Shown here one piece after another: positions 19,201-58,844 of a stretch of 64,000 nucleotides of DNA. A model generated the notes under the pieces. The model did not search any database and had not been told where the DNA came from. It saw only the letters and a program-made list of their open reading frames with translations. A program made the position numbers and the translations under genes. The DNA comes from Candidatus Zhuqueibacterota bacterium (GTDB taxonomy: Bacteria; Zhuqueibacterota; Zhuqueibacteria; Oleimicrobiales; Geothermoviventaceae). Each line of letters begins with the position of its first letter. The first letter of the stretch is position 1. The stretch spans positions 36,653 through 100,652 of the forward strand of contig JAPDPT010000005.1 of NCBI GenBank assembly GCA_034506315.1. The letters run 5' to 3'.

Positions 19201-19220
19201 TTCCGACCCCGAGTTCCACC

Positions 19221-26449: not shown

Positions 26450-26480
26450 TCCAAGCTCCCTTCCGGCATGATCGTTGGCC

Positions 26481-36963: not shown

Positions 36964-39213
36964 TCACCGGCCGACACCCAGCTCGAACTGGGCCGACAGC
37001 GGGCCCACAGAGACCCTGAAATCGCCAGGCTCAACGTTTGGACGGTTGTCCAGACCGATAAACGCCAGATCGTCCTTCGTCAGACGGAACAGGACTGTCT
37101 TCTCCTGACCTGGGGCCAGGCTCACCTTCTCGAAGCGCTTCAACTTCCGAACCGAAGGGGTAACGGAGGCGTAGAGGTCACTCACGTAAAGTTGCACTAC
37201 TTCCGCTCCTTCCCGCGCGCCTACGTTCCGCACCTTGACCCGCACGGTGAGGGTGTCGTTTAGGGACATACGGCTCGGGAAGACTTCGAGGTCCGCAAAT
37301 TCGAATCGGGTGTAGCTCAGACCATGGCCAAAGGGCCACTCCGGGTTGTAACGGTTGTACGGGCCGTTTTCTTCGCTGTACTTGTGATCGTAGAGGGTGA
37401 GGTCGTTTGGATGACGCGGGTAGGTGATGGGCAGCTTCCCGCTCGGATTCACGTCGCCGAAAAGGATGTCCGCTATGGCCTGGCCCCCTTCCAGGCCGGG
37501 AAGGTAGGCCATCAGGATCGCCCTCGCGCCGTCCACGATCCGGCGGATCACACGGGGTCTACCTTCCACAAGTACCACGACGACCGGCACACCGGTTCGC
37601 TCCAGCGCTTCCACCAGTCGGAGCTGCGCCTCGGGCAGGTTGAGATCGAGAATGTTGCCTGGGGTCTCGCAGTAAGGAGCCTCGCCCACACAGGCGATCA
37701 CCACGTCCACTCCTGCTGCGGCCTTCACGGCCGCCTTTACGTCGATCTCGCGATCAAACGTGGCCCCCGGAACGTAACGCACCCTCCTTTCCCCCACTTT
37801 CTGCTGGATGGCCTCCAGGATGGTCAGCTTCTCCTGCGGGTAGAGGTCCTCGCGGTTCCCTTGCCAGGTGATCGTCCACCCGCCGTTCAGACAGCTCAGA
37901 CAATTGGCCGCAGGACCGGTGACCAGTACGCGGGCCGTCTTCTTCAAGGGCAAAAAGTCCCCGGCGTTTTTGAGGAGCGTAATTGATTCTTGCGCTGCCT
38001 GAAGAGCTACTCTCCGGAACTCCCTATGGCCGATCTCTCCCCTGCGCGCCGCATCGGGATAGGGATTCTCGAAGAGCCCGAGCTCGAACTTGAGGCGCAA
38101 GATTCGCCGTACAGCTTCATCGATCCGCGCTTCCGGAACTTCGCCCTCGCGCGCGAGCTCCAGAAGCAGCTCGTAAAAACTGAAATCCTCCGGGACCATA
38201 CTCATGTCCACTCCGGCCAGAACGGCCATTTTCACCGCCTCTTTCTGGGTGGACGCCACGTGGTCCCGGTAGTGCAGGTTGTTGATGTCCGCCCAATCGG
38301 AGACCAGCAGGCCATTGAATCCGAGCTCGCCCCGCAACAGATCGGTCAAGATGAACTTGTTGGCGTGCACCGGCCTCCCGTTGACCTCGCCGCTGTTGGC
38401 CATGACGGTGTGCACTCCTGCTTGGATCGCCGCCCGAAAGGTCGGCACGAAGTACTCCCGCAGCATGTTCTCGGGGATCCAGGCTGGGGTTCGGTCTTTG
38501 CCGGTAAGAGGGAAGCTGTAACCGAGATAGTGTTTCGCACAGCCTGCGACCCGGCCCGGCGCCGCCACGTAGTTGTCTTCCCCTTCGAGACCCTTCACGT
38601 AGGCCGCCCCCATGGTTGCGGCGAGGTAGGGATCTTCCCCGAAGGTCTCGAAGAGCCGAGGCCAGAGGGGCTGGCGTCCGATGTCCAGGACCGGTGAGAA
38701 GTTCCAGGGGATCCCGCAGGCTCGCACCTCAAAAGCCGTGATCTCTCCGTTCTTCCGCACGAGCTCCGGGTTCCAGGTGGCCGCCATCCCAAGGTTGTGC
38801 GGGAAAATTGTGGCGCCGACTGTGTAGTTTGCTCCGTGGACGGCATCGATCCCGTACAGGATGGGGATACCGAGCCTTGACTCCTTGGTGGCCACATCCT
38901 GAATCTGGGTGATGATGCGATGCCACTGATCCACCGTGTAGGCGGCGTTCACCACATTGAGGATCGAGCCCACATGGTAGTCCAGTATGGCCCTGCGCAG
39001 CTTCTGGGGGTCAAGTACATCGTCCGAAGAGTCCGCAGCGACCACCTGAAGGGTCACCTGCGTCATTTGTCCCACTTTCTCTTCCAGCGTCATCTGGCGC
39101 AGTAGATCATCCACCTTGCGCTCGATTTCCTCGCGGCTGGGACGATCGGACCCCACCGCCTGGCTTCCGAAAAGCAGGACCATACCCAGTGCGCAGATCC
39201 AAGCATTCTTCAT
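36964..39213 (-). CDS. GH3 family beta-glucosidase (BglX-like), periplasmic/secreted
   Basis: GIPILYGIDAVHGANYTVGATIFPHNLGMAATWNPEL and the catalytic nucleophile context GFNGLLVSDWADI (SDW) are present, along with C-terminal GH3 domains. Signal peptide MKNAWICALGMVLLFGSQAVG from the ATG at 39211-39213. Confidence 0.9.
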   Translation of the reverse strand: MKNAWICALGMVLLFGSQAVGSDRPSREEIERKVDDLLRQMTLEEKVGQMTQVTLQVVAADSSDDVLDPQKLRRAILDYHVGSILNVVNAAYTVDQWHRIITQIQDVATKESRLGIPILYGIDAVHGANYTVGATIFPHNLGMAATWNPELVRKNGEITAFEVRACGIPWNFSPVLDIGRQPLWPRLFETFGEDPYLAATMGAAYVKGLEGEDNYVAAPGRVAGCAKHYLGYSFPLTGKDRTPAWIPENMLREYFVPTFRAAIQAGVHTVMANSGEVNGRPVHANKFILTDLLRGELGFNGLLVSDWADINNLHYRDHVASTQKEAVKMAVLAGVDMSMVPEDFSFYELLLELAREGEVPEARIDEAVRRILRLKFELGLFENPYPDAARRGEIGHREFRRVALQAAQESITLLKNAGDFLPLKKTARVLVTGPAANCLSCLNGGWTITWQGNREDLYPQEKLTILEAIQQKVGERRVRYVPGATFDREIDVKAAVKAAAGVDVVIACVGEAPYCETPGNILDLNLPEAQLRLVEALERTGVPVVVVLVEGRPRVIRRIVDGARAILMAYLPGLEGGQAIADILFGDVNPSGKLPITYPRHPNDLTLYDHKYSEENGPYNRYNPEWPFGHGLSYTRFEFADLEVFPSRMSLNDTLTVRVKVRNVGAREGAEVVQLYVSDLYASVTPSVRKLKRFEKVSLAPGQEKTVLFRLTKDDLAFIGLDNRPNVEPGDFRVSVGPLSAQFELGVGR

Positions 39214-39236
39214 CGCCATCCCCTTGCCTTTCAGCC

Positions 39237-42209
39237 CTACTTGAGCACAAGCCACTTCCTGACCTCCACGGAGCCTCCCAGTGCAGCCTTCAGCAGATAC
39301 ACCCCCGTCGGTAGCCGATCCGCGCCCTCTAGGACCTGGCCAAGAGCCAAACGGAGGCGACCGGCCTTGGCCCTGAGTGGGGCGGACTCCATCACTTTCC
39401 TGCCTCGGAGATCAAACACGGCAATCGCCACTTCCCCCTGATGTGGCACGGCAAGCTGCAGATAGCAATCGTCTGCCCTGCAAGCCGAAGGCCTCCAGGG
39501 GTTGGGATAGAGACTCTCAATGGCAAACCGTCGCGGGATTTGCTGCGGGGAGGATTCGTTCTCCGCACCAGAAGGGCCACGGTAGATCTTCAGGCCGTAC
39601 CACACGGTGCGGTCTTTGGCCTGGTCCAGCTCGATCCGGAACCGACCGCCCACCACGGGCGCCCGCCACGAGCGCGCCAGCTCGGACTCGCCCTTGCGCG
39701 AGAGCGGGAAAATCCGCACGGAGTCCGCCGGAGTGGCAAGCTCCAGGACCACGCGCCGGGGCTCTACAAACGTGGGAGGCCTCCCCCATTGGTCATGGAC
39801 CGTACGCACGCCATCCCAGATCATGCCGTCATTCTGCACCCGGGAGGCCAAGGCTACAAGTACGCGATTGGTCGAATCGAAGGGCAAGCTGTCCACACAA
39901 ACAGCCGTCAGGGTCGTAAACCCGTCTGCGGACACCACCCTCCACGGACCGGTCTCCAAGCCTGCAAAGCGATCCAGCATCCCCGTGAAGGCCAAGAAGC
40001 GCGGACTAGCCACCCGCAGAAGGCCCAAGGGGTCCCACAGGATCTCTCCCGTATCCGAAAGGTACGGAGGACCGGACACGGCCGGAAGATGGCTCGCATC
40101 CAGGGGGGAGGGGCTCTGGAAGTCCACATTGCGCAGGCTATGGAGTAGGGCCAAACGCGGGTCCACAGGGGAGGGACCTTCCCATCCTCGGTAGCCCCGG
40201 CTTGGCTCCAGCAGCACATCCTCCCTATAGCTGTAGGCCAACGGAATCACCTGCCGCGCGGGCGCGACAAACCCCGCCCGGAGAGCGAGGGCGCAGGTGG
40301 GCATGTGAGCCATAATCGCTGTATTTCGGTGGTCGCTGAAAAAGCCGCGGACCAGATCGGTCTCCCAGTCGTCGCTGGTGCTCGCGTACTCGAAGAACAT
40401 GAAGCCGTCCGCGTCGTGGAACGCCGAGTAGGCCGTGATGAAGACCACGCCCTCCGTCTGATAGCGATTGGGGAAGGGATGGTCGTATTCACTGACTGTG
40501 TAAGGCTTGCCGGCCCAGGCTCTCCCGGCAAACAGCCGGCCGATTGTGGCGCCATTCGTCTCGAGCACCATCGCCGTGTTGTTGATGAACCAATCCACGG
40601 GTGACCAGGGCTCTCCTGGAAACTGAGGGTGGTCCCAGTACGCATGGTTGTCCACGTAATCCGCCTGCGACTGCACGTAGAGGTCCACCAACCCGAAGTT
40701 CCAGTTCGTGCGCACGATCGGCACCTTGACGCCGACCTCCGTTCGGAGGTAATTCTCCATGTCCGAGAAGAAACTCTCCTGGAGGCGGATGTAGAATTCC
40801 GTCTGGTCGGCTACCCGCGCGTCGCTGTAGGAGGGGCAGGCAGAGAAGGGGATGCGCCGCACCGTGCCTGCTTCGAGGCGCTCATCCTCAGCAAGACCAT
40901 AGCGAAGGCCTTCGTAGAGGTGCAGATCGTCAAACCAGTACGTACCTCGGGAGGCCCCCAGGAAAAAGCTCACCCGGAGATTGGTGTACTCCTGATCGGG
41001 CCTCCAGCTCATCGAAAAGGTCTGCCAATTGGGTTCGAGACGGAAACGACCGTAGGCGTACGTCGTCCAGGGGTCCGCGTTTTTCATGATGACCACGGTG
41101 ATGTCGCGGGGCGCGTCGGCTCGAGCCAGGAACTGCAGGACGTAGACGGAGTCCCTGTGCACGGCCAGACCGGCCTGCTGCCATTGCACGTGCCAGTCCA
41201 CGCCGTCTGTGGCCGTTACCACGACCCGTGCCGAGAGCCTTCCTTCCGCGGGGTCGGATGTGTCCACTGCCTGGTTGGCGGCTGCTGGGGAATGCACTTC
41301 GAGTCTCCAATTGCGAAGCGCCGGATCGCTATCGATCGTTCCGCCCTTCAGGAGATCGCGAGCAGCTCGCAGCTCGGCACCCCCCCACGCAAGACGCAGG
41401 TTCTCGGTGCTCCCGTACTTGTCCCTTAGAAACTGGCACCAAAGGCTGTCCAGAAGCCGGGCGTGGTAGTAGGTCAAGTTACCCCCCTCTCGAATGGGGG
41501 CCAGCAGGTCCTGACGCCACATGTAGTAGAGCGAGTTCTCGTTGGTGATCTCCACCATGGCCATCACCGGGTCGTCCTTCAGCGGGAGACGGGTGTAAGG
41601 GTTCACGTGGGTCAGGAGCTGGCGCGCGTATTCCTTCTGAAGCTCGATCAGACGGCGATCGAAGAGGCTAACCCCCTTGGCGAAATCGCGCAACGAATCA
41701 GCGTAGGGAACGCCGTCCTCCCTCCGGAAGGTACGGCTCACGTGAAGATTGACGTTGACGCGAATGCCATTGCGCTTCAGGTGAGCGATCAGATACTCCA
41801 GCCTGTCCAGCGTGACCGGGTTCAGGTGTCGTGTGTCAGAGCCCTGCTGAAACAGACTGCCCGGGCTCCACGGATTGTCCATGTGGTGCAGGCGGACCAG
41901 ATTGAAACCCATCTTTCGCAGCCGGGCCGCAATCCAGGGGGCCTTCGACTTGACCGGGAAGCAGCCATCGGCCACCAGATTCGTGCCGAAGAAGCGGAGC
42001 CGCTTGCCGCCTGCGGCGAAGTGGCCCTCCCCGTTGATGGTGACGAATTCGCCTGGACGGACAGCCTCGCTAAACGAGGGCCAACACTCCTGGAACGAAC
42101 TGTCCTCGGGCGGAAGGTAGAACGAGAATCCCCCGGTGAACTCCTGAGGAAAGGCCAGCCCCACCGCAACGAACAGCCCCGTTACCGCGATGGTAACCGC
42201 TCTGGTCAT
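39237..42209 (-). CDS. Large clan GH-A (GH5-like) glycoside hydrolase with T9SS C-terminal sorting domain
   Basis: The (beta/alpha)8 N-terminal region NLVRLHHMDNPW ... VMAMVEITNENSLYY has an NE acid/base-like strand-4 motif as in GH5. About 990 aa with beta-sandwich C-terminal modules. The C-terminus ...GVYLLKAALGGSVEVRKWLVLK is a T9SS CTD. ATG at 42207-42209 (MTRAVTIAVTGLFVAVGLA). Confidence 0.6.
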   Translation of the reverse strand: MTRAVTIAVTGLFVAVGLAFPQEFTGGFSFYLPPEDSSFQECWPSFSEAVRPGEFVTINGEGHFAAGGKRLRFFGTNLVADGCFPVKSKAPWIAARLRKMGFNLVRLHHMDNPWSPGSLFQQGSDTRHLNPVTLDRLEYLIAHLKRNGIRVNVNLHVSRTFRREDGVPYADSLRDFAKGVSLFDRRLIELQKEYARQLLTHVNPYTRLPLKDDPVMAMVEITNENSLYYMWRQDLLAPIREGGNLTYYHARLLDSLWCQFLRDKYGSTENLRLAWGGAELRAARDLLKGGTIDSDPALRNWRLEVHSPAAANQAVDTSDPAEGRLSARVVVTATDGVDWHVQWQQAGLAVHRDSVYVLQFLARADAPRDITVVIMKNADPWTTYAYGRFRLEPNWQTFSMSWRPDQEYTNLRVSFFLGASRGTYWFDDLHLYEGLRYGLAEDERLEAGTVRRIPFSACPSYSDARVADQTEFYIRLQESFFSDMENYLRTEVGVKVPIVRTNWNFGLVDLYVQSQADYVDNHAYWDHPQFPGEPWSPVDWFINNTAMVLETNGATIGRLFAGRAWAGKPYTVSEYDHPFPNRYQTEGVVFITAYSAFHDADGFMFFEYASTSDDWETDLVRGFFSDHRNTAIMAHMPTCALALRAGFVAPARQVIPLAYSYREDVLLEPSRGYRGWEGPSPVDPRLALLHSLRNVDFQSPSPLDASHLPAVSGPPYLSDTGEILWDPLGLLRVASPRFLAFTGMLDRFAGLETGPWRVVSADGFTTLTAVCVDSLPFDSTNRVLVALASRVQNDGMIWDGVRTVHDQWGRPPTFVEPRRVVLELATPADSVRIFPLSRKGESELARSWRAPVVGGRFRIELDQAKDRTVWYGLKIYRGPSGAENESSPQQIPRRFAIESLYPNPWRPSACRADDCYLQLAVPHQGEVAIAVFDLRGRKVMESAPLRAKAGRLRLALGQVLEGADRLPTGVYLLKAALGGSVEVRKWLVLK

Positions 42210-42219
42210 AGCTCCTGCC

Positions 42220-45200
42220 CTATCTGACAAGCACGAGCTTCACACTCCGCACGTACTCCTCCGAGCCGCGCGCCGCCCTGATCCTGCACACGTAGACTCC
42301 CGAGGGGAGCCCGCGCGGGGACCACCGGGCCAGGTGCCACCCTGCTGCCTGGGGACCGTCGAAAAGTCGCTCCACCTCGCGTCCCCGCGAGTCGAACACC
42401 TGGACGGTAACCCGGGCTGGCCACGGGAGCCGATACCGCAGCGCCGTCGCTTCATTAAAGGGGTTCGGACAACCGGGTAGCAGAGTGAAATGGCCCGGGG
42501 CAACGCTGGCCTCCGGAGGAGATTCTGTGCCGCTTGTTCCAGCGAACGGGTCTTTGATTTCCAGGAGAAGCTCCCAGATGGCCCGGGGTCGCTGATACTG
42601 GGGAGCGCGGTACCTCCGGGGATCGCTGAAATGCCATGCTTCTGGGGTGTTGAAAAAGTAAGCGGTCTCCTCATTGACCCAGGTCTGGTAGTACACGCCG
42701 TAGGCGGTCTGCAGAGCCCGCTGACACAGGAGCTCGTCGCCCAGTTCCTTGCCCCAGTGGTACATCATGGCCGCGACGAAGTAGCTGCTGCCCGTCCACA
42801 CCTCATCTGCCTGGCCATTGCCCACGGCGGTGCCATCGGGCCTGCGGCCGTTCACGGCGCCCATGTCCCCCACCCCGTCACCCGTGAAGTCGCGGAGCGG
42901 AGCCACGCACAGCTCGAAAACCTTGTGGAGATGGGAGGCCATGCGCTCCGGAGGCAAGATCGGGGGCAAACCGTTCGTCTCGCAGTACCGGCTGCCGTTG
43001 AGCCCATCGGCCATGATTACGTCCGAGGTCTGATCCAGACGATAGTAGCCCCCTCCTTCCACCCAGAGAATCGCGTTCGCGGCTACTCGGGCGAGGGAAA
43101 GTCGGCGGCGCACATCGTTCAGAAGCACGCCGTCTCCTTTTTCCTCGGCCAGCTGCTCCAGTGCCTCCAGCGCTCCGATCCACAATCCGCTGGCCAAGAG
43201 ATTGTCTCCGTGAAATCCCCAGGCATCGTAGGTCGTGTTGCCAACATCGGGCAGGCCGTTGCCATTGGTGTCCTTGGTTTTCATGTACGCGAAGGTTTTC
43301 TTGCACGCCGGCCAGACGAAGTCGAGGAACGCGCGATCGCGTGTCGTACGGTAGTAGGCGTAGACCTGCTGGATGAACTTGCTGGGCATATCCTGCCAGT
43401 CGCCGCCGTAGCCGCTGAACCGGAAGAACGGGTCCTGGCTTGGCATTCCGGCGTCGTGAGGAGCTTTCCCGTCCGGATCGTTGGCGATGTAGTCCGCGAA
43501 CCAGCGCAGCACATCCCTTTCAATCTCCGGCCAAAGCACTAAGTAATGGCGGCACTCGTAGTGCCGGACGTCGAAGGTTTCGCAGAAGGGGTAGGCCTGG
43601 CACTCCATGGAGAAGTACTTGTGGTCGGAGGGCGGAAGCGTGCCGTAGGAGGACTCCTCCGGCTTCGTGAGGCAACCGTTTTCCCAGAACACGCCGCCGA
43701 AGGTATCGTAGTAGAGTTCGTTCAGGGCAGCCTGCTTGAGCCAGTCGGGGTAACACGGTTCGGACAGGATCCTGTCCTGCCAGGCGTCCACCATCGCCTC
43801 CCAGTTGGTGTAGTTTCTCAGAGCTTCGGAGGCGATGTCGAAGGAGTTGTCGGCCTGGGTGTCAAAGTACTCTGTATAGCGGCGGTACCACTGGGTGCCC
43901 GCTCCGAATTCCACGATCGGGAAATCCCATGCCAGAGCAAAGGGCACACTCCATACCTCTCCCGGAGCCAGGCGTTTCCGAACGGCAATCGCCGCTGCTT
44001 CGGCGTCCGGATGGAGGCTGCGATTGCTGAGGAGCCCGTCGTCCCCGAAGTCGGTGTAGAAATCCGCGCCGTCGCCTCGTCCGTTCCAGGAGGTGCAGTA
44101 GCTCACCTCCTCCTCGGGGCTGAGGCGGCGGGTGGCAATGCACCACTCCGTCCCCTCCGTGGCGCGGCGGTTGGACGGACTGGTCGCGTCGAGGATCACT
44201 CCGAGGATATCGCCCTCCGTCCGCAGCACAGATCGCTTTCCGTAGCGTGGCCAATCCCCGTAGTCTGCATTGGGAAACGTAAGGGCAAAGGCTACCCGAA
44301 CCGTCTCGGTCGTCGCGTTGCGCACCACCGCTTCGAACACAGCCACCGGGAAGCTGCTCTCCCGGTAATTGTGAGGAATCACGGGCGTGAAGTGCCGCAG
44401 CGCCACCTCCACAGGCAGACCGTGGTACAGGAACCAGGCTTTGGGGTAGAGGGCAGCGTATATCCCTTCGCCGGGAAGTAGGCGTCGCCAGGCAGGCAGG
44501 ACATCCTCCGTGGCCAGGGTCGCCACCTGCGGCGCCTGGTGCCCCTGTTGGATCCACAAGTGGAATGCCCCGGCCGAGAGGAATTTCTCTTCGTGCAGCC
44601 CGGTCCGGAATTCCCACGGACCGAAGGTGCCGCACAGGTTGAACATGAAGTTGCCAGCCCCGATCCCACCCAGGGGGACTCCCCGTTTCGCATGGCCCGT
44701 AGCCCCGACCGGGTAATCTCCGATGGGCCGCGTCCAGGCAACCTCCGGGATCCTGGCCAGCTGCTCGGAAGGACGGCTGGCGATCACGGTTACCGGCTCG
44801 CTCCACGGACTGGCGTTGCCGAACACGTCCAGAGCGCGCACGCGGTAGCGGTAGGTTCGACCAACGACCACGGCGCTGTCCGCTGCGCGCACAATCGCAC
44901 TAACGCCTTTGATGATCTCTGGACCAAGCGCCTCCCACGCGCCTTCTTCCCCCACAGCTCGCTGGAGCTGGTAGCCGTCGAGGTCGGGCTCTCGATTGCG
45001 TTTCCAAGAAAGCCAAATCCTGCCCTGCCAGAAGGAGCCACGCAGCCCTTCTGGGACCGAGGGAGGCTGGTCGTCGGGCACGGCAGGAACGATGGCGATG
45101 GCTGCGAACTTGGCATAGTCCACCTTGACCTCGGGGACGGTGATGTCGATGCGGCCGTCGCGGACCCGCACAAAGACGGAGGTGTCTAACGCGGCATCGT

Positions 45201-45645
45201 GTCCAACCTGGGAGAAGATGTCGAAGTCATCCAGGAAGAGCAGCCCGTTGACGGCGACATCGAAGACCCGACGACCCGGTGCTGTCCAGTAGAGCTCGCA
45301 GAACTTGAACAGGATCCGGTACACCCCATTGTCCAGCCCCTCGTACCGGTAATGGAGATCCGGCCCGTAGCGTTCGGTACGATAGAGCTCGTCGTCGAGG
45401 GTACCGGAGATTTCGTCCGCCGTAGTCGCCGTGCCGACGCCTGCGCTCAGATAGCCCCAGCTTCCGGGGCGAAAGGCCCGATCGGCCTCCCACAGTTGAC
45501 CTGCTCGGTCCCGGTAAGCCACGGCCGTCCCGCAGCGGTGTCGGATCTCGACCGCCCACCCCGTGCTCATGGTCCACGCGACTACGAAGACGGCAACCCA
45601 CCGGGCAGCTGTTGACCAACGGACTCTACCCGACACCCCGCGCAT
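42220..45645 (-). CDS. GH116-family beta-glucosidase (GBA2/glucosylceramidase-like) with N-terminal malectin-like (CBM57-like) and FN3 domains and a T9SS CTD
   Basis: RGVPLGGIGAGNFMFNLCGTFGPWEF is the characteristic GH116 N-domain motif. The malectin-like stretch is YRILFKFCELYWTAPGRRVFDVAVNGLLFLDDFDIFSQVG. An FN3-like segment (...GRIWLSWKRNREPDLDGYQLQRA...) follows. The C-terminus ...SGVYVCRIRAARGSEEYVRSVKLVLVR is a T9SS CTD. The ATG at 45643-45645 has an AGGAG RBS 9 nt upstream. Confidence 0.7.
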   Translation of the reverse strand: MRGVSGRVRWSTAARWVAVFVVAWTMSTGWAVEIRHRCGTAVAYRDRAGQLWEADRAFRPGSWGYLSAGVGTATTADEISGTLDDELYRTERYGPDLHYRYEGLDNGVYRILFKFCELYWTAPGRRVFDVAVNGLLFLDDFDIFSQVGHDAALDTSVFVRVRDGRIDITVPEVKVDYAKFAAIAIVPAVPDDQPPSVPEGLRGSFWQGRIWLSWKRNREPDLDGYQLQRAVGEEGAWEALGPEIIKGVSAIVRAADSAVVVGRTYRYRVRALDVFGNASPWSEPVTVIASRPSEQLARIPEVAWTRPIGDYPVGATGHAKRGVPLGGIGAGNFMFNLCGTFGPWEFRTGLHEEKFLSAGAFHLWIQQGHQAPQVATLATEDVLPAWRRLLPGEGIYAALYPKAWFLYHGLPVEVALRHFTPVIPHNYRESSFPVAVFEAVVRNATTETVRVAFALTFPNADYGDWPRYGKRSVLRTEGDILGVILDATSPSNRRATEGTEWCIATRRLSPEEEVSYCTSWNGRGDGADFYTDFGDDGLLSNRSLHPDAEAAAIAVRKRLAPGEVWSVPFALAWDFPIVEFGAGTQWYRRYTEYFDTQADNSFDIASEALRNYTNWEAMVDAWQDRILSEPCYPDWLKQAALNELYYDTFGGVFWENGCLTKPEESSYGTLPPSDHKYFSMECQAYPFCETFDVRHYECRHYLVLWPEIERDVLRWFADYIANDPDGKAPHDAGMPSQDPFFRFSGYGGDWQDMPSKFIQQVYAYYRTTRDRAFLDFVWPACKKTFAYMKTKDTNGNGLPDVGNTTYDAWGFHGDNLLASGLWIGALEALEQLAEEKGDGVLLNDVRRRLSLARVAANAILWVEGGGYYRLDQTSDVIMADGLNGSRYCETNGLPPILPPERMASHLHKVFELCVAPLRDFTGDGVGDMGAVNGRRPDGTAVGNGQADEVWTGSSYFVAAMMYHWGKELGDELLCQRALQTAYGVYYQTWVNEETAYFFNTPEAWHFSDPRRYRAPQYQRPRAIWELLLEIKDPFAGTSGTESPPEASVAPGHFTLLPGCPNPFNEATALRYRLPWPARVTVQVFDSRGREVERLFDGPQAAGWHLARWSPRGLPSGVYVCRIRAARGSEEYVRSVKLVLVR

Positions 45646-45672: not shown

Positions 45673-47697
45673 TTAATGGACAACGGTGAGCTTTTGCACA
45701 AGCTTGCGGCCACCGCTCTCCAGCACACAGACGTACACGCCACTGGGGACGCGCTGGAACTCCGCATTCCGACCGTCCCAGGTTACGTTCCGCAGCCCTG
45801 CTCTGACCTCCCCCGAGTGTACGGTGGCCACCAGTCCCCCCATCGAGTCGAAGATCTGCACACGCAGTGGCATCTCCTCATTGGAGAGAACCGGTATGGC
45901 CAGGCGCTCTCCCACCGGATTGGGGTGAGGCCGTCCGATCCAGAGCCCGCTCCTCAGCTCCTGGAACATGCCCATCTGCTTCACGCTGGCCCCAGCGATC
46001 CGGAAATCAACCAAGTTCAGGTTGAAACCGCCGGTGGGGAAGAGGAGCTTCAGCACGTGCCGGCCGGAAGGCAACGTCACCGTGGGGCCGTCAATGTACT
46101 GCCAATTTTTCCAGCCGCCCGTGGAGGGAATGGCTATGGGGCCAGCCAGAGGCGAATCGTCCAGGAAGAGCTGGACGCTGCCCGTCGCCTGAGGGGAGGC
46201 CACGCGTAATCGGACCGTGTACGTTCCTTCCACGTCCACCTGGACGGTGAACTTGAGCCATTCGCCTGCCTCGATCCAGCCGACGCTGTAGCCGTTTCCC
46301 TCTGTGTCTCCACTGGCCTCGATATCGACCCCGTCGTTGCGAAAGACGGAGCCTCGGTTCCATTGCTCGCCGCTTGTGAGGCCTTTGGTCTTCCAGTAAT
46401 CTGTGTCGTGATAGGCCACGCCCTCGTTGCCCATGTCGTACTCAACCGCCAGCAGCCGGCCCGGAAGCCGGTGCTCCGAGTAGGGAACCGGTTCGGTTGT
46501 GAACCCGGGTCGGAGGAGGGCGTCCACCACATCTGGGTGGTACACGCAGTTCTCGAGCTTCAGCTGCTCCGCCATCCCGAACAAGGCGCGACGGGCCAGC
46601 TCGGCATCGGGCCGGGCGGCTCTCCCATTCCAGTAATCGAGCACCCGCTGGTACTCGGCGGTGATGGGGGCCGAGAACGGGCTGGTGAGGGTCTGGAACT
46701 TCTTATGGGTCCACCAGCACCAGCCGATTTTGTTCTGTTCCATGAGCCGGATGCAGGTGCCGAACCAGGGGTTGGAGTTCTCTCCGGACTCGCCAAGCCA
46801 GAGGGGAGTGTGGTAACGCCTTCGGATGTCAAGCAGGTACTGGATGGTCGGCAGGGTCGGCTCGTTCCAGTACTTGTGGAAGCTGTAGCAGAGATTGACG
46901 TCGAAGGGGGGCGTGAGATTGCTGAAATCTGTGGCGTACCAGTTCCCTTCGATGAAGACCATGTGGTTGGGGTCCACTTCGCGGATCGCCTGCGTGATCC
47001 GCATGTACAGAAGACGAAGCTCGGTGGTGCTGTGGCCCGAAGGAAGCACAGGCTCATTGAGGAGGTCATAGCCTCCGATCCACTCCTCCTGCGCGTACCT
47101 CTCGGCGATACGGCGCCAGATGTCCACCACCCGATCCTGATTCGAGGGGTCGGTCCAGAGGCGGGCCTCGATCCCGTCCGAATCGCTATGGTTCTCTTTG
47201 TTCTGCCCACCGGGGGCGCAATGCATATCCAAGATCAGGTAGAGGTGATACTTCCTGCACCACTCCACCACCCGGTCGAGGAGCTGGAATCCCTCCTCTA
47301 AGTACACACCGGGCTGGTCGGGCGGTGTGAGAAGCGCGTAATGAAAGGGCAGCCTGATGGAGTTGAACCCCCACTGGGCAATCCGCGCCACATCCTCCTC
47401 CGCCACGTAGTGGGCGCGGTATTGCTGGAAGAACTCATCGGTCAACTGGGGACCCAGCAGGTCGGCGATGAGATTGCGAATGGACGTCGGGGAGCCGAAT
47501 CCGGGCACTCTCAGCATGTAGCCCTCGGGAACCAACCAGCCGCCAAGTCCCAGGCCCCGTAGGATGACCTCCTCCCCGGTACGGGTGTCGATGATGCGCT
47601 CGCCTTGGGCCTTCAGAAAGGCGAGAGAAGGCACCGGGAGGAGACCGCACAGCAAGACCCCCGTCAGCGCACTCCAAAGTCGCGCATTCGGCTTCAC
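45673..47697 (-). CDS. GH5 family beta-glucanase with C-terminal CBM6/35-like module and T9SS CTD
   Basis: FNSIRLPFHY...LILDMHCAPGGQN...GYDLLNEPV (NEP acid/base motif) identify GH5. The C-terminal beta-sandwich GEWLKFTVQVDVEGTYTVRLRVASP...GGWKNWQY resembles CBM6. The C-terminus ...SGVYVCVLESGGRKLVQKLTVVH is a T9SS CTD. GTG start at 47695-47697 with a GGAGGTGGG RBS, giving signal peptide MKPNARLWSALTGVLLCGLLPVPSLA. Confidence 0.8.
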   Translation of the reverse strand: MKPNARLWSALTGVLLCGLLPVPSLAFLKAQGERIIDTRTGEEVILRGLGLGGWLVPEGYMLRVPGFGSPTSIRNLIADLLGPQLTDEFFQQYRAHYVAEEDVARIAQWGFNSIRLPFHYALLTPPDQPGVYLEEGFQLLDRVVEWCRKYHLYLILDMHCAPGGQNKENHSDSDGIEARLWTDPSNQDRVVDIWRRIAERYAQEEWIGGYDLLNEPVLPSGHSTTELRLLYMRITQAIREVDPNHMVFIEGNWYATDFSNLTPPFDVNLCYSFHKYWNEPTLPTIQYLLDIRRRYHTPLWLGESGENSNPWFGTCIRLMEQNKIGWCWWTHKKFQTLTSPFSAPITAEYQRVLDYWNGRAARPDAELARRALFGMAEQLKLENCVYHPDVVDALLRPGFTTEPVPYSEHRLPGRLLAVEYDMGNEGVAYHDTDYWKTKGLTSGEQWNRGSVFRNDGVDIEASGDTEGNGYSVGWIEAGEWLKFTVQVDVEGTYTVRLRVASPQATGSVQLFLDDSPLAGPIAIPSTGGWKNWQYIDGPTVTLPSGRHVLKLLFPTGGFNLNLVDFRIAGASVKQMGMFQELRSGLWIGRPHPNPVGERLAIPVLSNEEMPLRVQIFDSMGGLVATVHSGEVRAGLRNVTWDGRNAEFQRVPSGVYVCVLESGGRKLVQKLTVVH

Positions 47698-47732
47698 GCT
47701 CCCACCTCCTCGCCTTGTTACCTTGGGTGATG

Positions 47733-47752
47733 TGAACAAAATCCAGGCCGGA
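47733..47752 (-). promoter_or_regulatory. Weaker sigma-54-like -24/-12 element for the GH5 gene
   Basis: Minus-strand cGGCCTG-GATTT-TGTTc: GG at 47749/47748 with correct spacing, but the -12 element is TTGT rather than TTGC. It sits about 35 nt upstream of the GTG start and 75-115 bp downstream of the tandem palindromes, the same geometry as at 36.8 kb. Confidence 0.3.
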
Positions 47753-47824
47753 CTGCGGACGGAAAACGGTGCCTTGAATTGCAACGACTTAACGGGCCGG
47801 CGCACACGGAGGCCGGCCCCGGCA

Positions 47825-47864
47825 ATTATCGCCATGATAATGGGACGTTATTGTTCTGATAACG
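47825..47864. promoter_or_regulatory. Second pair of ATTATC-N5-GATAAT-type palindromes (candidate UAS), upstream of the GH5 gene and adjacent to the sigma-54 regulator gene
   Basis: ATTATCGCCATGATAAT (47825-47841) is a perfect ATTATC-N5-GATAAT site. CGTTATTGTTCTGATAACG (47846-47864) is a degenerate GTTAT-N7-ATAAC site. Centres are 22 bp apart, identical to the pair at 36912-36950. Confidence 0.5.
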
Positions 47865-48053
47865 CCACGAGGGAGGAGTCTCGTCGCCCCTGAGCCCAAG
47901 GGGACAAAGGATGCGCGGTGTCACTTGGACAGCCGTGCGTGAAGGGGTTCTCTTGCAGCGCTCCGGGGAGACCCGTCCGCGATGAGGGGCAAGACGCAGC
48001 TTGCGCGGAACCTCCCCCCACTCCGGCCGGGAGCTGGTAGCCAGAGGGTCCCG

Positions 48054-49514
48054 TTACTTGAGCCCGAGATCGCGGCACATCCGATGGAAGTTCGGTGGTG
48101 CCAGACCGAGCATCCGGGCGGCTTCTGCATCGGAGGAGCAGATCTTTCGCACGTAGCGGAAGTACTCCTCGCGGAAGCGCCTCTCCATTTCGCGCCAGGG
48201 GAGAATCTTCCCGTCGCCCGCGCGCCGTAACCAGTCCTCGATCTCCACCTCTTTGCGAAGCCGGATCTGGAAACCAAGAGCCTCCTCTACGTCCTCCCGG
48301 TCCAGACGCGGCTTCCCGGTCAGGAGAAGCCGCTGTATCACGTTCTGCAACTGGCGCACGTTCCCAGGCCAGGGATAGCCCAGCAGGACTTCCATGGCTG
48401 CCGGGCTCAGCTCCGGCGGGAGGCGGCCCATCTCGTCGCTATACCGCTTGAAATAGTGATCTGCCAAGAGGGGGATGTCCTCCCTTCGTTCGGCAAGGGG
48501 GGGCACGTAGATCGTCAGGACATTGAGGCGGTAGTACAGGTCCTCCCGGAAACGCCCTTCGCTGACCTCGCGCTCCAGATCTCGATTGGTGGCCGCGATC
48601 ACCCGCACGTCAACTTTCACGCGCCGCGTTCGTCCGATCTTGTCGATCTCCCCCTCTTGGATCACACGCAGCAGCGTGGACTGGGTGCTGAGGGGCAGCT
48701 CCGTGATCTCGTCCAGAAAAACGGTGCCCCGATCGGCCAGCTCGAAAAGGCCAGGCTTGTTGGCTTCCGCCCCCGTAAAGGCGCCCTTCTCGTACCCGAA
48801 GAGCTCACTTTCGATGAGGTTCTCCGGCAAGCTCCCGCAGTTTATGGGGAGGAAGTTTTCGAAACGGCGGCGACTGAGGTAATGGATATGAGTCGCCACC
48901 AGCTCCTTACCGGTACCGGAGGCGCCTCGGATCAATACCGTACTGTCGGTTTCAGCACACTGGCGGATCTGCTCGCGCAGGCGCTGAATGGCCGGCGATT
49001 GTCCCACAATGACCCGTTGGGCCAGGATATCCTCGATGCTCTTCTCCAGGCGAGCCGCGGAACGCCGCTTCTCCAGTTCCAGGCGCCTCTTCTCATAGGC
49101 ATTGAAGATGCTCAGAATAAAGTCCGTGGGCTGGTAAATGAAGTCGTCGATGTCGGCGGGGTACTTGGTGCAGTACCAGGTGGCCCCGGCTTCCAGGAGG
49201 CGATTGGCGAATTCGTAGTCGGTCATGTTGATGGTCATCTTGGTCACCACGATGATCTGGAGCGCCGGGTCAATCTCTTTGATGCGGCGGATGAGCGGCT
49301 CTCCCATGAGGCCGCCCGCGATCTGGAAGTCCATGATCACCACGTCGTACGAGCTCGGCGACTTGGCCAATTGCTCCAATGCCAGCCGCCCGTTAGCGAA
49401 CACGTCCACGATCTTGATCCGGTCTGCGAAGGGTTCGAGCGTACGTCGGATGCGGCGCACGTCGAACTCCTCGTCCTCGATCAACATGACCCGGATCGTA
49501 TGGCCCTTGCCCAT
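48054..49514 (-). CDS. Sigma-54-dependent two-component response regulator (NtrC family: receiver - AAA+ - Fis-type HTH)
   Basis: The receiver domain is IRVMLIEDEEFD...VVIMDFQI. The AAA+ sigma-54 activator domain has Walker A GASGTGKE, the GAFTGA sigma-54 contact loop (YEKGAFTGA) and an ESELFGY motif. The C-terminal HTH is AARMLGLAPPNFHRMCRDLGL. ATG at 49512-49514. Confidence 0.9.
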   Translation of the reverse strand: MGKGHTIRVMLIEDEEFDVRRIRRTLEPFADRIKIVDVFANGRLALEQLAKSPSSYDVVIMDFQIAGGLMGEPLIRRIKEIDPALQIIVVTKMTINMTDYEFANRLLEAGATWYCTKYPADIDDFIYQPTDFILSIFNAYEKRRLELEKRRSAARLEKSIEDILAQRVIVGQSPAIQRLREQIRQCAETDSTVLIRGASGTGKELVATHIHYLSRRRFENFLPINCGSLPENLIESELFGYEKGAFTGAEANKPGLFELADRGTVFLDEITELPLSTQSTLLRVIQEGEIDKIGRTRRVKVDVRVIAATNRDLEREVSEGRFREDLYYRLNVLTIYVPPLAERREDIPLLADHYFKRYSDEMGRLPPELSPAAMEVLLGYPWPGNVRQLQNVIQRLLLTGKPRLDREDVEEALGFQIRLRKEVEIEDWLRRAGDGKILPWREMERRFREEYFRYVRKICSSDAEAARMLGLAPPNFHRMCRDLGLK

Positions 49515-49518
49515 GGGC

Positions 49519-51009
49519 TCAGCTCCTGCTCTCATTGGGGATGGTGATCACAAACTGGCAGCCGCGGGAGAGGTTCTCGGCGTCGATCCTCCACCCGCAG
49601 CGCTGCGTGGCAATCTCGTAGGCGATGTAGCAGCCATAGCCGCTCTGATGGGCTGTGGTCTTGGTCGACACGTTCTCCAGGAACAGCCGTTTCACCCCAT
49701 TTTCCTCCAGAAGAAGATCCGGACGGATCCCCACCCCGTTGTCCCCGATGTAAACCTTGGACTCGCCTTTTTCCGGATCGTATACGGTCCGAATGTGTAC
49801 GGTGACCTGCCCATCGCCGGCGTGGTCCAGGCTATTCTGGATCAGCGGCTCAAAAACCTCCCACACGACGAACTCATTGACGTGGACCACAGGCAGATTC
49901 GGGTCCAGGTCCAGCTGGAACTGGTAGTCGCCAAGCGGGGCCGAGACGCGGCGGAAGATGTTGTCCACCAGGAACTGCAAGAGCTCGTTGATGTCCGTTC
50001 GGAACATCGGCCCTCGGATGGCCTGAATTGGCGGGTCGTAGGTCTTCATGTCGTAGATCACGCGGGAGATGAAATTAGCGTACTTGGACACGCGGTACTT
50101 GACCTCCTGGATGTTCTCCACGGACAGGCGCCGGAGATCTTCTTTGATGAAGCCCATGATCTTCTCGGCTTTGTGGTGGGTGTGGTAGATCCGCTTGGCG
50201 AAGAGGGCTTCCTTTTGGTGGTGAATTCGTTCCCGCAGTTGGCGCTCGCGTTCCTCGAAAAGCTGGCGCTGGGCCTCATCCCTCTCCTTGACCGTGTAGG
50301 ACGAGATGTAGAACATGGCAAGCAGGCCAAAGAAAATGAGGCCGGTGAAGATGAGGCTGCTTTCGTTGTAGCTGGAGACGATGCCGCTGGTTACGATCCC
50401 GAAGTCCGGGGCGTACTTCATGTAAAGGGCACCCATCAGCTCGCCCTTCGGGACGAAGGGGACGAAAACGTGGAACGTCCGCGGCGGTTCGACGAGGCTC
50501 CGGATCTGCTCCTGGGAGATGATTTCATCGAAATGCTCACGGTAGAGCTGGAGGGCGCGCGCGTAGGTCGTGTCGTTATCCGCCGGGGGCTCCATTCCCC
50601 AGAAAAGGGTTGCGAACAGCTGCTGCCCGTTGTCCACCGGATGGGCGTTGGCGCCATCGCCCAGAAGCAGGCAGACCTGCTGCACATGGTGCTGGAGCAG
50701 CTGCTCGCTCAGAATGATATTGAAAGCCTGGATGATCTTCTTCGCTTCGTCGTCGCTGACGAAAGGACGGCTCTCAAGGCTCGTCTCCAGAAGCAACTCA
50801 AGGGAAGTTGCGGTGAGATTCGCCAGCTTCTCCGCGAAATCGCGTTGGTACCACTCCTGTGTGTTCACGAGAAACTTCTGCAGGGAGACCTTATGGATAA
50901 ACGACACTAACACCTGGAAGAAGACGAGCACCGAGAGGAGCACCATCAGGTGTTTCAGCTCGAAGTGATAGGGCCTCACCTTATCCATTAACTTCTGCAC
51001 GTACCTCAT
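49519..51009 (-). CDS. Sensor histidine kinase (membrane-anchored, HATPase_c)
   Basis: N-terminal TM segment MVLLSVLVFFQVLVSF. The C-terminal GHKL ATPase stretch is ...LIQNSLDHAGDG...IGDNGVGIRPD...GYGCYIAYEIATQRCGW. Its stop lies 5 nt before the regulator start, so the two are operonic. Confidence 0.75.
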   Translation of the reverse strand: MRYVQKLMDKVRPYHFELKHLMVLLSVLVFFQVLVSFIHKVSLQKFLVNTQEWYQRDFAEKLANLTATSLELLLETSLESRPFVSDDEAKKIIQAFNIILSEQLLQHHVQQVCLLLGDGANAHPVDNGQQLFATLFWGMEPPADNDTTYARALQLYREHFDEIISQEQIRSLVEPPRTFHVFVPFVPKGELMGALYMKYAPDFGIVTSGIVSSYNESSLIFTGLIFFGLLAMFYISSYTVKERDEAQRQLFEERERQLRERIHHQKEALFAKRIYHTHHKAEKIMGFIKEDLRRLSVENIQEVKYRVSKYANFISRVIYDMKTYDPPIQAIRGPMFRTDINELLQFLVDNIFRRVSAPLGDYQFQLDLDPNLPVVHVNEFVVWEVFEPLIQNSLDHAGDGQVTVHIRTVYDPEKGESKVYIGDNGVGIRPDLLLEENGVKRLFLENVSTKTTAHQSGYGCYIAYEIATQRCGWRIDAENLSRGCQFVITIPNESRS

Positions 51010-51021
51010 GGCGGACCCTTC

Positions 51022-52362
51022 CTACTTGAGTACAAACTGGTTGGAAAAAATGGCGGCCTGCGCCTTTTCCAAAGCCTCTGCCACCGACATTTCCCCCCGA
51101 ATGGCCAGGTTTGCGTAATAGGAGAGGATATCCGACACCTGCGTGTAGCGCTCAATGTAGGGGCGGTGCACGCCGTGCTCCATCAGCCTTCGGTACAGGG
51201 ATAGATCTGGGTGCGCCGCGAGGAACGAGGTGTCTGCGTAGATGGACTGCAAGACGGGGATGTACCCGGAGGTTTCGTAGAGGATCTTCTGGTTCTGCTC
51301 TTCAAGGAGGAAACGCACAAAAGTCAGGGCAGCCCTCCCGTTGCGGGAGAATCGCGAGATCATCAGGTTCCATCCGCCGAACACGAAGGCGGGCCGCCCC
51401 CCGGCAAAGTGCGGAAGCGGCGCCAGACCGAAGTTCGACAAGGGAGCGGTCCTTTCAATCTGTTCCCGGTAGTGGAGGAGAAACCCTGGCCAGCCGCGGA
51501 AGAAGATCGCGTTGTGATCCAAGGCGTACATGTAGCTCAGGATCTCGTCGAAGAAGACCACCTTGGGCGGCGTGGCGCGGTAGCGATGGACCAGGTCGGC
51601 GAGGAGCTGCAGGCTGCGCCGGGCCGCGGGCGTATTGACCCGAATCCTCCCCTCGGCATCCACGAGGGAATCCCCCAGGCTCATCACTCCCTCCACGAAA
51701 CTGCAGATGAGCCCCTCGTAGTTGTCCGCCGCGAAGAGGTAGTACGGGCTCGTCTTGGGGCTCCAGCGCTCGAACGCGGCTAAGAATTCTTCCCAGGAGA
51801 TCGAGCGCTGGACCTTCTCCTGGAGCGCCGGCCAGTCCGGAAGTTGTTGCAGGAGGTCCTTGCGGTAGTACATCAGGCCGATGTCCAGGTAGAGGGGCAC
51901 GGCCATCAGCCTTCCCTGGTAGTAGCAGGAGGTCAAAGCATAGGGCAGAAGGCGCGCGCGATCTGCGTGCGTGAAGTAGGCGTCGAGCGGCTCCCCCCAC
52001 TTGGCGAAGCGCGGTACCCAGATGACGTCCACCGAAAACACGTCGATGCGGTCGCTCTTGCTGCGAAGGGCCCGTGCCAGAAGCTCCTTGCGTTCGTTGG
52101 TGCTGAAGCGGGTGAAGGGCAAATGGACCGTAATGACCTGGTAACGATTGCGGTAGCGTTCGTTGAAGCGCCGCACAATCTCCTGGTGGGCAGGGGAAAT
52201 GTTGTCTGCGTAGTAGATTTTCACCACAGGCGGGCGCGCCGGTGAGGTCAGAATCGCCGGACCGACGATAATGGCCAAGATCGCCACCCCAATCACCGCA
52301 AACGTGACCCCCCAGAGCACGCGGCGCCCAAACTTCTCCTCCTGTTGCTCTTCCATGGGCAA
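51022..52362 (-). CDS. Extracellular solute-binding protein (family-1 sugar ABC-type SBP) with no cognate permease; likely a sensor-associated ligand-binding component
   Basis: N-terminal membrane anchor/signal VLWGVTFAVIGVAILAIIVGPAIL. An SBP_bac_1-like body follows (...VDVIWVPRFAKWGEPLDAYF...). TTG start at 52362 with a GGAGGTG RBS. Directly followed by the kinase and regulator genes. Confidence 0.7.
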   Translation of the reverse strand: MPMEEQQEEKFGRRVLWGVTFAVIGVAILAIIVGPAILTSPARPPVVKIYYADNISPAHQEIVRRFNERYRNRYQVITVHLPFTRFSTNERKELLARALRSKSDRIDVFSVDVIWVPRFAKWGEPLDAYFTHADRARLLPYALTSCYYQGRLMAVPLYLDIGLMYYRKDLLQQLPDWPALQEKVQRSISWEEFLAAFERWSPKTSPYYLFAADNYEGLICSFVEGVMSLGDSLVDAEGRIRVNTPAARRSLQLLADLVHRYRATPPKVVFFDEILSYMYALDHNAIFFRGWPGFLLHYREQIERTAPLSNFGLAPLPHFAGGRPAFVFGGWNLMISRFSRNGRAALTFVRFLLEEQNQKILYETSGYIPVLQSIYADTSFLAAHPDLSLYRRLMEHGVHRPYIERYTQVSDILSYYANLAIRGEMSVAEALEKAQAAIFSNQFVLK

Positions 52363-52366
52363 GAGC

Positions 52367-53131
52367 TCACCTCCTGCGGAAAATCTGAACGTGGTCGTAC
52401 AGAGCCTGGGCTGGGAGGTTGCTGTCGTCTCTGGGCCCCGCCCAGGCCACCGATTCCGAATACCAGAGGTTCATCATCACCTGCATCCGCAGATCGGGCA
52501 CGTGCGTCGTGTCCGCCACCTGATGGATCAGCTTTCCGTCGGCGTACCAGCGTACCACCCCCTCCTCCCATTCGATCGAATACTCGTGAAAGTCGGCCGC
52601 GGCATCGAACGGCAGAGCGATGACCTTGGGCCATTGGTGCCCGGCGTCCCCCGCATTGTTCGCAGCGCCCTCAGGCCCCGGATTGTAGTAGATATTCAGG
52701 TGGATCTTGCGTGTATCCTTGCCCAGGAACTCGATGTCGATTTCCTGCCAGGGATTGTACCGGTAGAGGAAAAACGAGCTAACGATCCCGCTCCCCCGCG
52801 CAGCCTTCATCCGCACAGAAAACCTACCGTACAGGTATGAGGAACGCGTCCGAAGCTCCCCGCCGGTGTAGTTCCGGTCCAGGTAGAACTCGGGTCGGAG
52901 CGTGAGGACGAGTTTACCGTCCTGCACTGTGACGTTCTCCGGCTTGAAACGGGCCGCGTTGTACGGGAAGGTGTGAGTGGCTTTCTCCCAGCGCGTTTCG
53001 TTGAGCGTGTCGAAGGGCTCGTCGAGGATGAGTTTCCAGGGCGATGGCTCAGGTGCAGTGGACGATTTCGAACATCCCCACGCAAACAAGACCCACGTGA
53101 TCCAAAGGACCGGCCCCACGCGCTTGCCCAT
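52367..53131 (-). CDS. GH16 beta-glucanase lipoprotein (paralogue of the CTD-bearing GH16 at 21790..23589)
   Basis: Lipobox ...VLFAWGCSKSS. GGELRTRSSYLYGRFSVRMKAARGSG and the catalytic WQEIDIEFLG (ExDxE) are present. 254 aa with no CTD. ATG at 53129-53131 with a GGGAGG RBS. Confidence 0.85.
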   Translation of the reverse strand: MGKRVGPVLWITWVLFAWGCSKSSTAPEPSPWKLILDEPFDTLNETRWEKATHTFPYNAARFKPENVTVQDGKLVLTLRPEFYLDRNYTGGELRTRSSYLYGRFSVRMKAARGSGIVSSFFLYRYNPWQEIDIEFLGKDTRKIHLNIYYNPGPEGAANNAGDAGHQWPKVIALPFDAAADFHEYSIEWEEGVVRWYADGKLIHQVADTTHVPDLRMQVMMNLWYSESVAWAGPRDDSNLPAQALYDHVQIFRRR

Positions 53132-58753: not shown

Positions 58754-58844
58754 CGTCAACGAAGCTCGTTTTCGTCCGTCGCCGTACCTTCCGTCACCGC
58801 CTACCCCCTCGGAGGTAGCTGCTTTGCCGACCTCTGCGGGCAAC

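Follow-up and report, generated by a model that had tools for sequence, protein, structure and literature searches.

An apparently secreted GH116 beta-glucosidase with malectin, FN3 and type IX sorting domains in a probable beta-glucan gene cluster of Candidatus Zhuqueibacterota

Within glycoside hydrolase (GH) family 116, no carbohydrate-binding module (CBM) is described for the characterised members that PMC10167657 names, i.e., human GBA2, TxGH116 of Thermoanaerobacterium xylanolyticum and SSO1353 from an archaeon, and the activities of the family include glucosylceramidase, beta-xylosidase and beta-N-acetylglucosaminidase (PMC10167657). GBA2 is located at the cytoplasmic face of the endoplasmic reticulum (ER) and of the Golgi and cleaves glucosylceramide, whereas TxGH116, expressed as a delta-1-18 construct, acts on cellobiose, laminaribiose and beta-1,3/1,4 gluco-oligosaccharides and not on glucosylceramide as GBA2 does (PMC10167657). 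The catalytic pair of TxGH116 consists of E441 as nucleophile and D593 as acid/base, while D452, H507, T591, E777, R786 and R792 hydrogen-bond the glucose in the -1 subsite (PMC10167657). The present work concerns a GH116 gene on a stretch of 64,000 nucleotides (contig JAPDPT010000005.1), hereafter the window, from a Candidatus Zhuqueibacterota bacterium. In the protein encoded, the GH116 core is preceded by a malectin module and a fibronectin type III (FN3) domain and followed by a type-A C-terminal sorting domain (CTD) of the type IX secretion system (T9SS), and we hold it to be probable that this is a retaining exo-beta-glucosidase of the TxGH116 type, exported by the T9SS and acting within a beta-glucan utilisation operon. 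An earlier note on this DNA had already singled out the gene; the observation itself is confirmed and the interpretation then given is partly supported.

The gene lies at 42220..45645 on the minus strand as an ATG-to-stop open reading frame (ORF) of 1141 aa, inside which two of the three peptides initially highlighted are found, namely GVPLGGIGAGNF (44647-44682) and RVFDVAVNGLLFLDDFDIFSQVG (45202-45270). The G+C content is about 62% across the window and the gene shows no compositional break. A fused or mis-called ORF is ruled out by the existence of an identical 1141-aa protein, already in NCBI with a GH116 annotation, and of ten co-linear orthologues. The order of the protein is predicted signal peptide, then malectin, FN3, GH116 N-domain, GH116 catalytic domain and T9SS type-A CTD, with the following parts:

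45550..45645, minus strand: predicted Sec signal peptide (aa 1-32, MRGVSGRVRWSTAARWVAVFVVAWTMSTGWA then VE), with positive n-region and hydrophobic core
45079..45549, minus strand: malectin/CBM57-type module (aa 33-189; Pfam match aa 38-172)
44767..45072, minus strand: FN3 domain between malectin and enzyme (aa 192-293)
43801..44682, minus strand: GH116 N-terminal beta-sandwich domain (aa 322-615), aligning with TxGH116
42568..43617, minus strand: GH116 catalytic (alpha/alpha)6 domain (aa 677-1026)
43603..43605, minus strand: codon of E681, predicted catalytic nucleophile (TxGH116 E441), mapped by alignment and invariant in 11 orthologues
43225..43227, minus strand: codon of D807, predicted acid/base (TxGH116 D593), mapped by alignment and invariant in 11 orthologues
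42223..42468, minus strand: T9SS type-A CTD (aa 1060-1141, 82 residues)

These domain assignments, first proposed from the letters of the DNA, are borne out by profile searches and structure prediction. Both GH116 domains are matched over the whole model, namely by PF12215 Glyco_hydr_116N (E=4.5e-71, 240.4 bits against a cutoff of 30.2, positions 1-312/312) and by PF04685, i.e., the GH116 catalytic/DUF608 family (E=3.5e-65, 221 bits against a cutoff of 26.3). The malectin module is matched by PF11721 Malectin (96.5 bits, cutoff 23; E=2.2e-27) as well as by the animal malectin chains 2jwp and 2k46 (E ~1e-12). Pfam fn3 on the single sequence gives 17.9 bits, under its cutoff of 25, and a profile of the segment built from 11 orthologues matches, in PDB, titin FN3 (9.5e-15), the bacterial (Clostridium) Fn3-like 3mpc (3e-8), the chitinase A1 FN3 1k85 (3.6e-7) and fibronectin. 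At the C-terminus, the model TIGR04183, whose cutoff is 23, reaches 23.9 bits with the complete protein and 29.9 bits when the tail is searched by itself; it also matches 10/10 orthologue tails, among which the motifs PNPFN...PSGxY...K are conserved, and Pfam Por_Secre_tail (PF18962) is annotated on the orthologues P0006, P0007 and P0009. At the N-terminus, a hydropathy/charge heuristic finds a signal peptide-like sequence in the protein itself and in 9/11 orthologues. The full-length AlphaFold2 (AF2) model, computed from an 11-sequence alignment, has a mean predicted local distance difference test (pLDDT) of 63 and a predicted template modelling score (pTM) of 0.54, and use of it was limited to locally confident segments, namely a seven-strand beta-sandwich at aa 200-290 (pLDDT 79-93) for the FN3 domain, a beta-sandwich (pLDDT 82-91) for the CTD, and a helix at aa 6-30 which fits a signal peptide.

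The best solved relative of the protein is TxGH116 (chain 5bvu; E=4.2e-116, 392 bits, aa 311-1028 aligned). All eight mapped active-site residues are identical to those of TxGH116 and invariant across 11 orthologues, i.e., the catalytic pair E681 and D807, whose conservation had been suggested as a check, and the glucose-binding residues D692, H730, T805, E1002, R1013 and R1019 (TxGH116 D452, H507, T591, E777, R786 and R792, respectively), including both residues that bind the 6-OH of glucose. Because of this identity and invariance, the protein is very probably an active retaining beta-glucosidase, and identity with TxGH116 further leads one to expect an exo-acting enzyme on beta-1,3/1,4 gluco-oligosaccharides. 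Since the 6-OH binders E1002 and R1013 are conserved, a glucoside rather than a xyloside is favoured as substrate. The most likely function is that of a secreted or surface-attached exo-beta-glucosidase trimming beta-1,3/1,4-gluco-oligosaccharides. A function closer to that of GBA2, i.e., hydrolysis of a glycolipid such as glucosylceramide or a steryl glucoside, or else a beta-xylosidase or beta-N-acetylglucosaminidase activity as in archaeal GH116s, would fall within the range of activities known for the family (PMC10167657), and homologues are auto-named "non-lysosomal glucosylceramidase" by several sources. It is nonetheless improbable here: a non-lysosomal glucosylceramidase chain matches the protein less well than TxGH116 does (253 vs 392 bits), TxGH116 does not cleave glucosylceramide in the manner of GBA2, the conserved 6-OH binders speak against the xylosidase variant, and the neighbouring enzymes and CBMs all indicate beta-glucan. 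Of the initial description as a GBA2-like GH116, the family assignment stands and the likening to GBA2 is loose.

Ten further clusters combine Malectin and GH116 (55-75% identity, 1070-1149 aa), which brings the architecture to at least 11 clusters, and the order Malectin-FN3-GH116 is found in all 11 orthologues as well as in the sister protein P0028. Another fifteen clusters (~870 aa; Ignavibacteriota and Bacteroidota among others) consist of GH116 and CTD without malectin. In a neighbour-joining tree of the GH116 core alone with 200 bootstraps, P0001-P0027 form one clade (200/200), in which the malectin-less forms are monophyletic (200/200) and nested within a malectin-bearing grade (159/200); the malectin-bearing set, monophyletic in 0/200 bootstraps, is the basal grade of the clade. 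Given this nesting, and because P0028 too starts with malectin and FN3, the Malectin-FN3-GH116 arrangement is ancestral to the clade and was lost once. Two homologues deviate from the two common forms. In P0011 (L005 874-4227), a dockerin-type tail (weak Pfam Dockerin_1 match) replaces the T9SS CTD, consistent with a different extracellular anchoring device on the same enzyme and in agreement with an extracellular enzyme. P0027 (785 aa, "hypothetical protein, partial" in NCBI) has a shortened, degenerate malectin/FN3 remnant with the GH116 motif at aa 184, and may represent a stage on the way to losing the N-terminal modules.

Export is not peculiar to this clade. Among 93 more distant homologues (P0028-P0120), a simple motif and hydropathy heuristic finds about 39 twin-arginine (Tat) leaders (e.g., SRRDFMRGSS) and about 29 Sec-like leaders, with about 11 proteins having none and 14 being unclear; the Tat motifs are plain despite the heuristic nature of the screen. 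With Tat- or Sec-like leaders in about 68/93 distant homologues, exported GH116s appear to be common in environmental bacteria. The premise of the earlier note that GH116 enzymes are usually cytosolic or membrane-associated thus holds true of the characterised members only, and it is further undercut by the fifteen GH116 and CTD clusters without malectin in a T9SS-CTD clade with 100% support.

From ~21.8 to 53.1 kb, the genes surrounding the GH116 gene are all on the minus strand. In transcription order they encode a small GH16, a solute-binding protein, a histidine kinase, a response regulator of the sigma54 type, GH5-CBM6-CTD, Malectin-FN3-GH116-CTD, GH5-like-CBM4_9-CTD, GH3, an unknown protein of 475 aa, a CBM9-CTD protein, a TonB-dependent receptor, an unknown protein of 1155 aa whose tail is CTD-like, a PorV/PorQ-family protein, an unknown protein of 504 aa and GH16-malectin-CTD. 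The features that bear on the function of the cluster are the following:

52367..53131, minus strand: small GH16 (BglS-like) with lipobox-like leader (profile match and N-terminus)
48054..52362, minus strand: sigma54-dependent response regulator, histidine kinase and solute-binding protein, upstream of the GH5 operon
45673..47835, minus strand: GH5 with CBM6/35 and CTD, upstream partner (Pfam Cellulase 1.9e-30, CBM_6 3.1e-22; CTD by orthologue hidden Markov model, HMM)
39237..42230, minus strand: GH5-like protein with CBM4_9 and CTD, downstream partner (Pfam CBM_4_9 2.1e-11; weak Cellulase match; CTD detected)
36964..39255, minus strand: GH3 beta-glucosidase with Sec leader, lacking a CTD (Pfam matches to the GH3 N-domain and C-domain and to Fn3-like)
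29984..32668, minus strand: TonB-dependent receptor with CarboxypepD_reg N-domain (Pfam)
25376..26497, minus strand: PorV/PorQ-family T9SS outer-membrane protein (NF033709 206.7 bits vs 90; Pfam PorV 38.1 vs 27)
21790..23589, minus strand: GH16 (BglS/ExoK-like) with malectin (aa 351-483, nt 22141-22539) and CTD (profile matches)

Within the GH5/GH116/GH5-like/GH3 operon the genes lie close together, at gaps between -19 and +27 nt, the largest of which (27 nt) separates the GH5-CBM6-CTD gene from the GH116 gene. Relatives of the GH5-CBM6 protein in PDB include CelC, exo-1,3-glucanases and laminarin-binding CBM6s, its own CBM6 resembling those of BH0236 and of a GH16 endo-1,3-glucanase. The CBM of the GH5-like protein is closest to the CBM4 of T. 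maritima laminarinase 16A (1gui, 6.9e-16), both GH16s resemble BglS/ExoK 1,3-1,4-glucanases, and GH3, which is probably periplasmic, has exo-beta-1,3/1,6-glucosidase and BglX as best NCBIfam matches. The gene order recurs at 75% identity in the relative L001 and the GH5-GH116-GH3 core at 60% in L002 and L003, while the order of regulator, kinase and solute-binding protein is the same in L001 and L002; in the dockerin-variant locus L005, the genes after GH116 encode GH3, an SSF transporter, GH9 and GH94. The most economical reading of these contents would be utilisation of beta-glucan (beta-1,3 and/or mixed-linkage). Although a TonB-dependent receptor is present, no SusD family member is matched among the GH116 neighbours by Pfam or NCBIfam; the cluster lacks the canonical SusC/SusD pair and is best described as a cluster of carbohydrate-active enzymes (CAZymes) resembling a polysaccharide utilisation locus (PUL).

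Some details of the cluster deserve mention on their own. The longest ORF of the GH5-like gene begins at a TTG (42230) and overlaps the GH116 stop codon by 11 nt; M8 (42209), followed by a clean signal peptide, is probably the true start, leaving a 10-nt intergenic gap. The gene (26481-29948, minus strand) of the 1155-aa protein is flanked by those of the TonB-dependent receptor and of the PorV/PorQ-family protein and overlaps the latter by 17 nt; its product has a signal peptide, a CTD-like C-terminus (KVVPNPY...AGMYIYHV...KFAIIK), a weak PorZ-tail match and no Pfam family. A PorU sortase was considered for this protein and rejected, there being no PorU HMM match and just a weak match to the CTD-like tail; it could instead serve, in this lineage specifically, for glycan binding at the surface or as a T9SS accessory. 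Some 2.5 kb past the GH16-malectin gene, a GH106 alpha-L-rhamnosidase-like protein (16414-19245, minus strand; E=4.3e-59) is ill-suited to a pure beta-glucan substrate and may serve a separate function.

In T9SS-dependent export, cargo can also be released and not just held at the surface. Cell-surface display of the GH116 enzyme, as proposed in the earlier note, is what we infer from its CTD, with release from the cell as the alternative. A CTD that is non-functional in this host would instead leave the enzyme in the periplasm, and three observations lean that way: Pfam Por_Secre_tail falls below threshold on this protein (17.9 bits), a literature search on KSB1 and type IX secretion found no relevant description, and the PorV/PorQ-family gene is the sole T9SS gene visible in the window. 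We regard this as very unlikely, since TIGR04183 is above its cutoff, the tail is kept in 10/10 orthologues as well as in the 15 malectin-less relatives, seven CTD proteins are encoded within one 64-kb window, the PorV/PorQ-family gene is in the cluster itself, and KSB1 (now Zhuqueibacterota) is a member of the Fibrobacteres-Chlorobi-Bacteroidetes (FCB) superphylum (PMC11683472). Outside the glycan cluster, CTD cargo is also represented by an M1-family peptidase with a Por_Secre_tail (10695-12683, minus strand) and by a 648-aa protein (1147-3093, minus strand) whose sole match is a FlgD_ig/CTD tail.

The window holds two malectins, the GH116 copy and that of the CTD-bearing GH16, in whose minus-strand ORF at 21790..23589 the peptide RIFDIHVEDSLVVDDLDIYQRVG (22216-22284) lies. 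The presence of this second copy, reported at the outset, is upheld (Malectin E=1.5e-20; TIGR04183 CTD 24.1 bits), and it had been taken to suggest domain shuffling within the locus. A recent exchange of malectin between the GH16 and GH116 genes would agree with the Pfam Malectin and CTD found in both proteins and with the local motif R[IV]FD...DDxDI[FY]xxVG common to them. Against this, the motif is the family consensus and the two modules are just 35% identical. Searched by itself in a word index, the malectin module gave no homologues; an exhaustive HMMER search of representatives, used instead, found it in 9457 representative clusters at E<=1e-3 and in 593 at E<=1e-30, many of the representatives carrying tandem copies that typically share 35-48% identity with the query. 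When 588 domain instances from the 150 best database representatives and the GH116 orthologues were ranked, the GH16 copy came 342nd for the GH116 malectin, and in the reverse direction the rank was 250th. The GH116 malectin scores 60 bits to the GH16 copy as opposed to 185-279 bits to full-length orthologues, with 142 bits to the N-terminally truncated P0010 and 111 bits to the best non-orthologue. In addition, the Malectin-FN3-GH116 order of 11/11 orthologues and P0028 is old, and the bootstraps (0/200, 200/200 and 159/200) place malectin-bearing proteins as the basal grade with the malectin-less forms nested. Exchange within the locus is hence extremely unlikely.

As to the ligand, the malectin might not be a glucan-binding CBM here, having instead a structural, protein-protein or cell-surface-attachment role. 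The plant malectin-like domain of ANX1 has lost the canonical sugar site and binds no disaccharides, the closest non-orthologous malectins belong to surface proteins of several domains (BACON/FG-GAP/Ig) that are non-enzymatic and likewise have FlgD_ig/CTD domains at their ends, and the N-terminal half of the module is modelled poorly by AF2. This seems unlikely to us when set against the joining of the modules to glycoside hydrolases, GH116 and GH16, in the locus, the match to the malectin region of the bacterial glucuronidase/arabinofuranosidase model NF049877, and the strong conservation across orthologues; plant leucine-rich repeat (LRR)-malectin kinases are moreover reported to sense cello- and mixed-linkage gluco-oligomers.

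The model that we infer for export, localisation, substrate, malectin ligand and regulation combines these elements. The GH116 enzyme would be made with a Sec signal peptide, and its type-A CTD would take it through the outer membrane via the T9SS, after which it would be either held on the cell surface or released. The malectin (CBM57-type), spaced from the enzyme by FN3, may tether it to glucan. Secreted GH16 and GH5 endo-glucanases with CBM4, CBM6 and malectin modules would cut beta-1,3 or beta-1,3-1,4 glucan, GH116 would take non-reducing-end glucose off the oligosaccharides or chain ends, the TonB-dependent receptor would import the products and the periplasmic GH3 would complete hydrolysis, with expression probably controlled by the solute-binding protein, histidine kinase and sigma54 activator.

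Several points weigh against this model. The signal peptide call on the GH116 protein comes from heuristics, the full-length AF2 model is poor with unreadable inter-domain geometry, the T9SS machinery visible in the window is confined to one component of the PorV/PorQ family, and ANX1 illustrates that malectin folds are not always sugar binders. No match to the sigma54 -24/-12 promoter consensus was found in the 47836-48053 gap upstream of the operon, the window-wide count of this consensus being at chance (57 found vs 55.6 expected). Besides, an extracellular exo-glucosidase yields glucose open to competitors, which is atypical for "selfish" uptake, and GH116 may in reality act on the end of a polymer or on another substrate. 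A bolder version, in which the Malectin-FN3-GH116-CTD clade comprises the first GH116s acting extracellularly on polymeric beta-glucan as CBM-targeted exo-glucanases, with a malectin that binds beta-1,3 or beta-1,3-1,4 glucan, is offered tentatively and is in our opinion rather doubtful; if true, it would provide the first defined bacterial ligand for CBM57 and a wider functional range for GH116.

Elsewhere in the window, two other genes are of separate interest. At 54017-58882 (minus strand), a 1621-aa frame joins a complete AcrB/resistance-nodulation-division (RND) permease (aa 47-1072) to a complete ATP-binding cassette (ABC) ATPase (aa 1345-1560) with Walker A, signature and Walker B motifs, through a linker of ~270 aa with further hydrophobic segments, and in L001, the relative at 75% identity, the same fusion has been called as a single gene (1572 aa). 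Such an arrangement would be unusual because RND pumps run on proton-motive force. At 9260-10987 (minus strand), an ORF has a strong full-length match to MtaB, the B subunit of methanol-cobalamin methyltransferase (E=4.9e-149); as it overlaps the adjoining M1-peptidase-CTD ORF by ~290 nt, its true start is probably internal.

A literature search on GH116 and malectin found no description of a malectin-GH116 fusion. The present protein adds an apparently intact, probably secreted, CBM-bearing representative to GH116, of modest practical value, and the locus provides an example of a conserved, probable beta-glucan operon from KSB1/Zhuqueibacterota, an uncultured phylum. Two over-readings are corrected, namely that export would be exceptional for GH116, when exported GH116s are common in metagenomes, and that a widespread CBM recurring in a locus would denote local shuffling. 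The enzyme is a reasonable target for biochemical work on bacterial CBM57 specificity and represents no new kind of biology.

Compared with known systems, the closest is TxGH116 (5BVU), with the same two-domain core, nucleophile, acid/base and six -1 subsite residues; its PDB chains contain the GH116 core alone, whereas the window protein adds ~290 N-terminal residues (malectin and FN3) and a CTD and belongs to a separate clade (100% bootstrap). Human GBA2 shares the CAZy family and the catalytic machinery but is a weaker match (253 bits), and the window protein differs from it in being predicted as exported and in lying in a glucan locus. The Ignavibacteriota/Bacteroidota GH116 and CTD proteins (P0012-P0026; L009-L012) have a core 53-62% identical, the same CTD and a place in the same clade (200/200), yet they are without malectin and FN3 and nested in the malectin-bearing grade, implying a single loss, and at least one of them (P0023) is not in a glucan operon. 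Animal malectin (2K46, 2JWP), matched at E ~1e-12, is an ER lectin for Glc2-N-glycans, whereas the module of the GH116 protein, likened to it by sequence match, is at the N-terminus of a predicted secreted bacterial hydrolase. Like the PULs of Bacteroidota, the cluster has CAZymes beside a CarboxypepD_reg TonB-dependent receptor, a sensor/regulator, CBM-bearing CTD enzymes and a probably periplasmic GH3; unlike them, it has no SusD-like protein among the neighbours, a sigma54 two-component regulator and a KSB1/Zhuqueibacterota host. All in all, the GH116 core is a regular family member that very probably works like TxGH116, in an ordinary kind of modular enzyme, as malectin, FN3 and the type-A CTD are standard parts of secreted glycanases of the FCB group.

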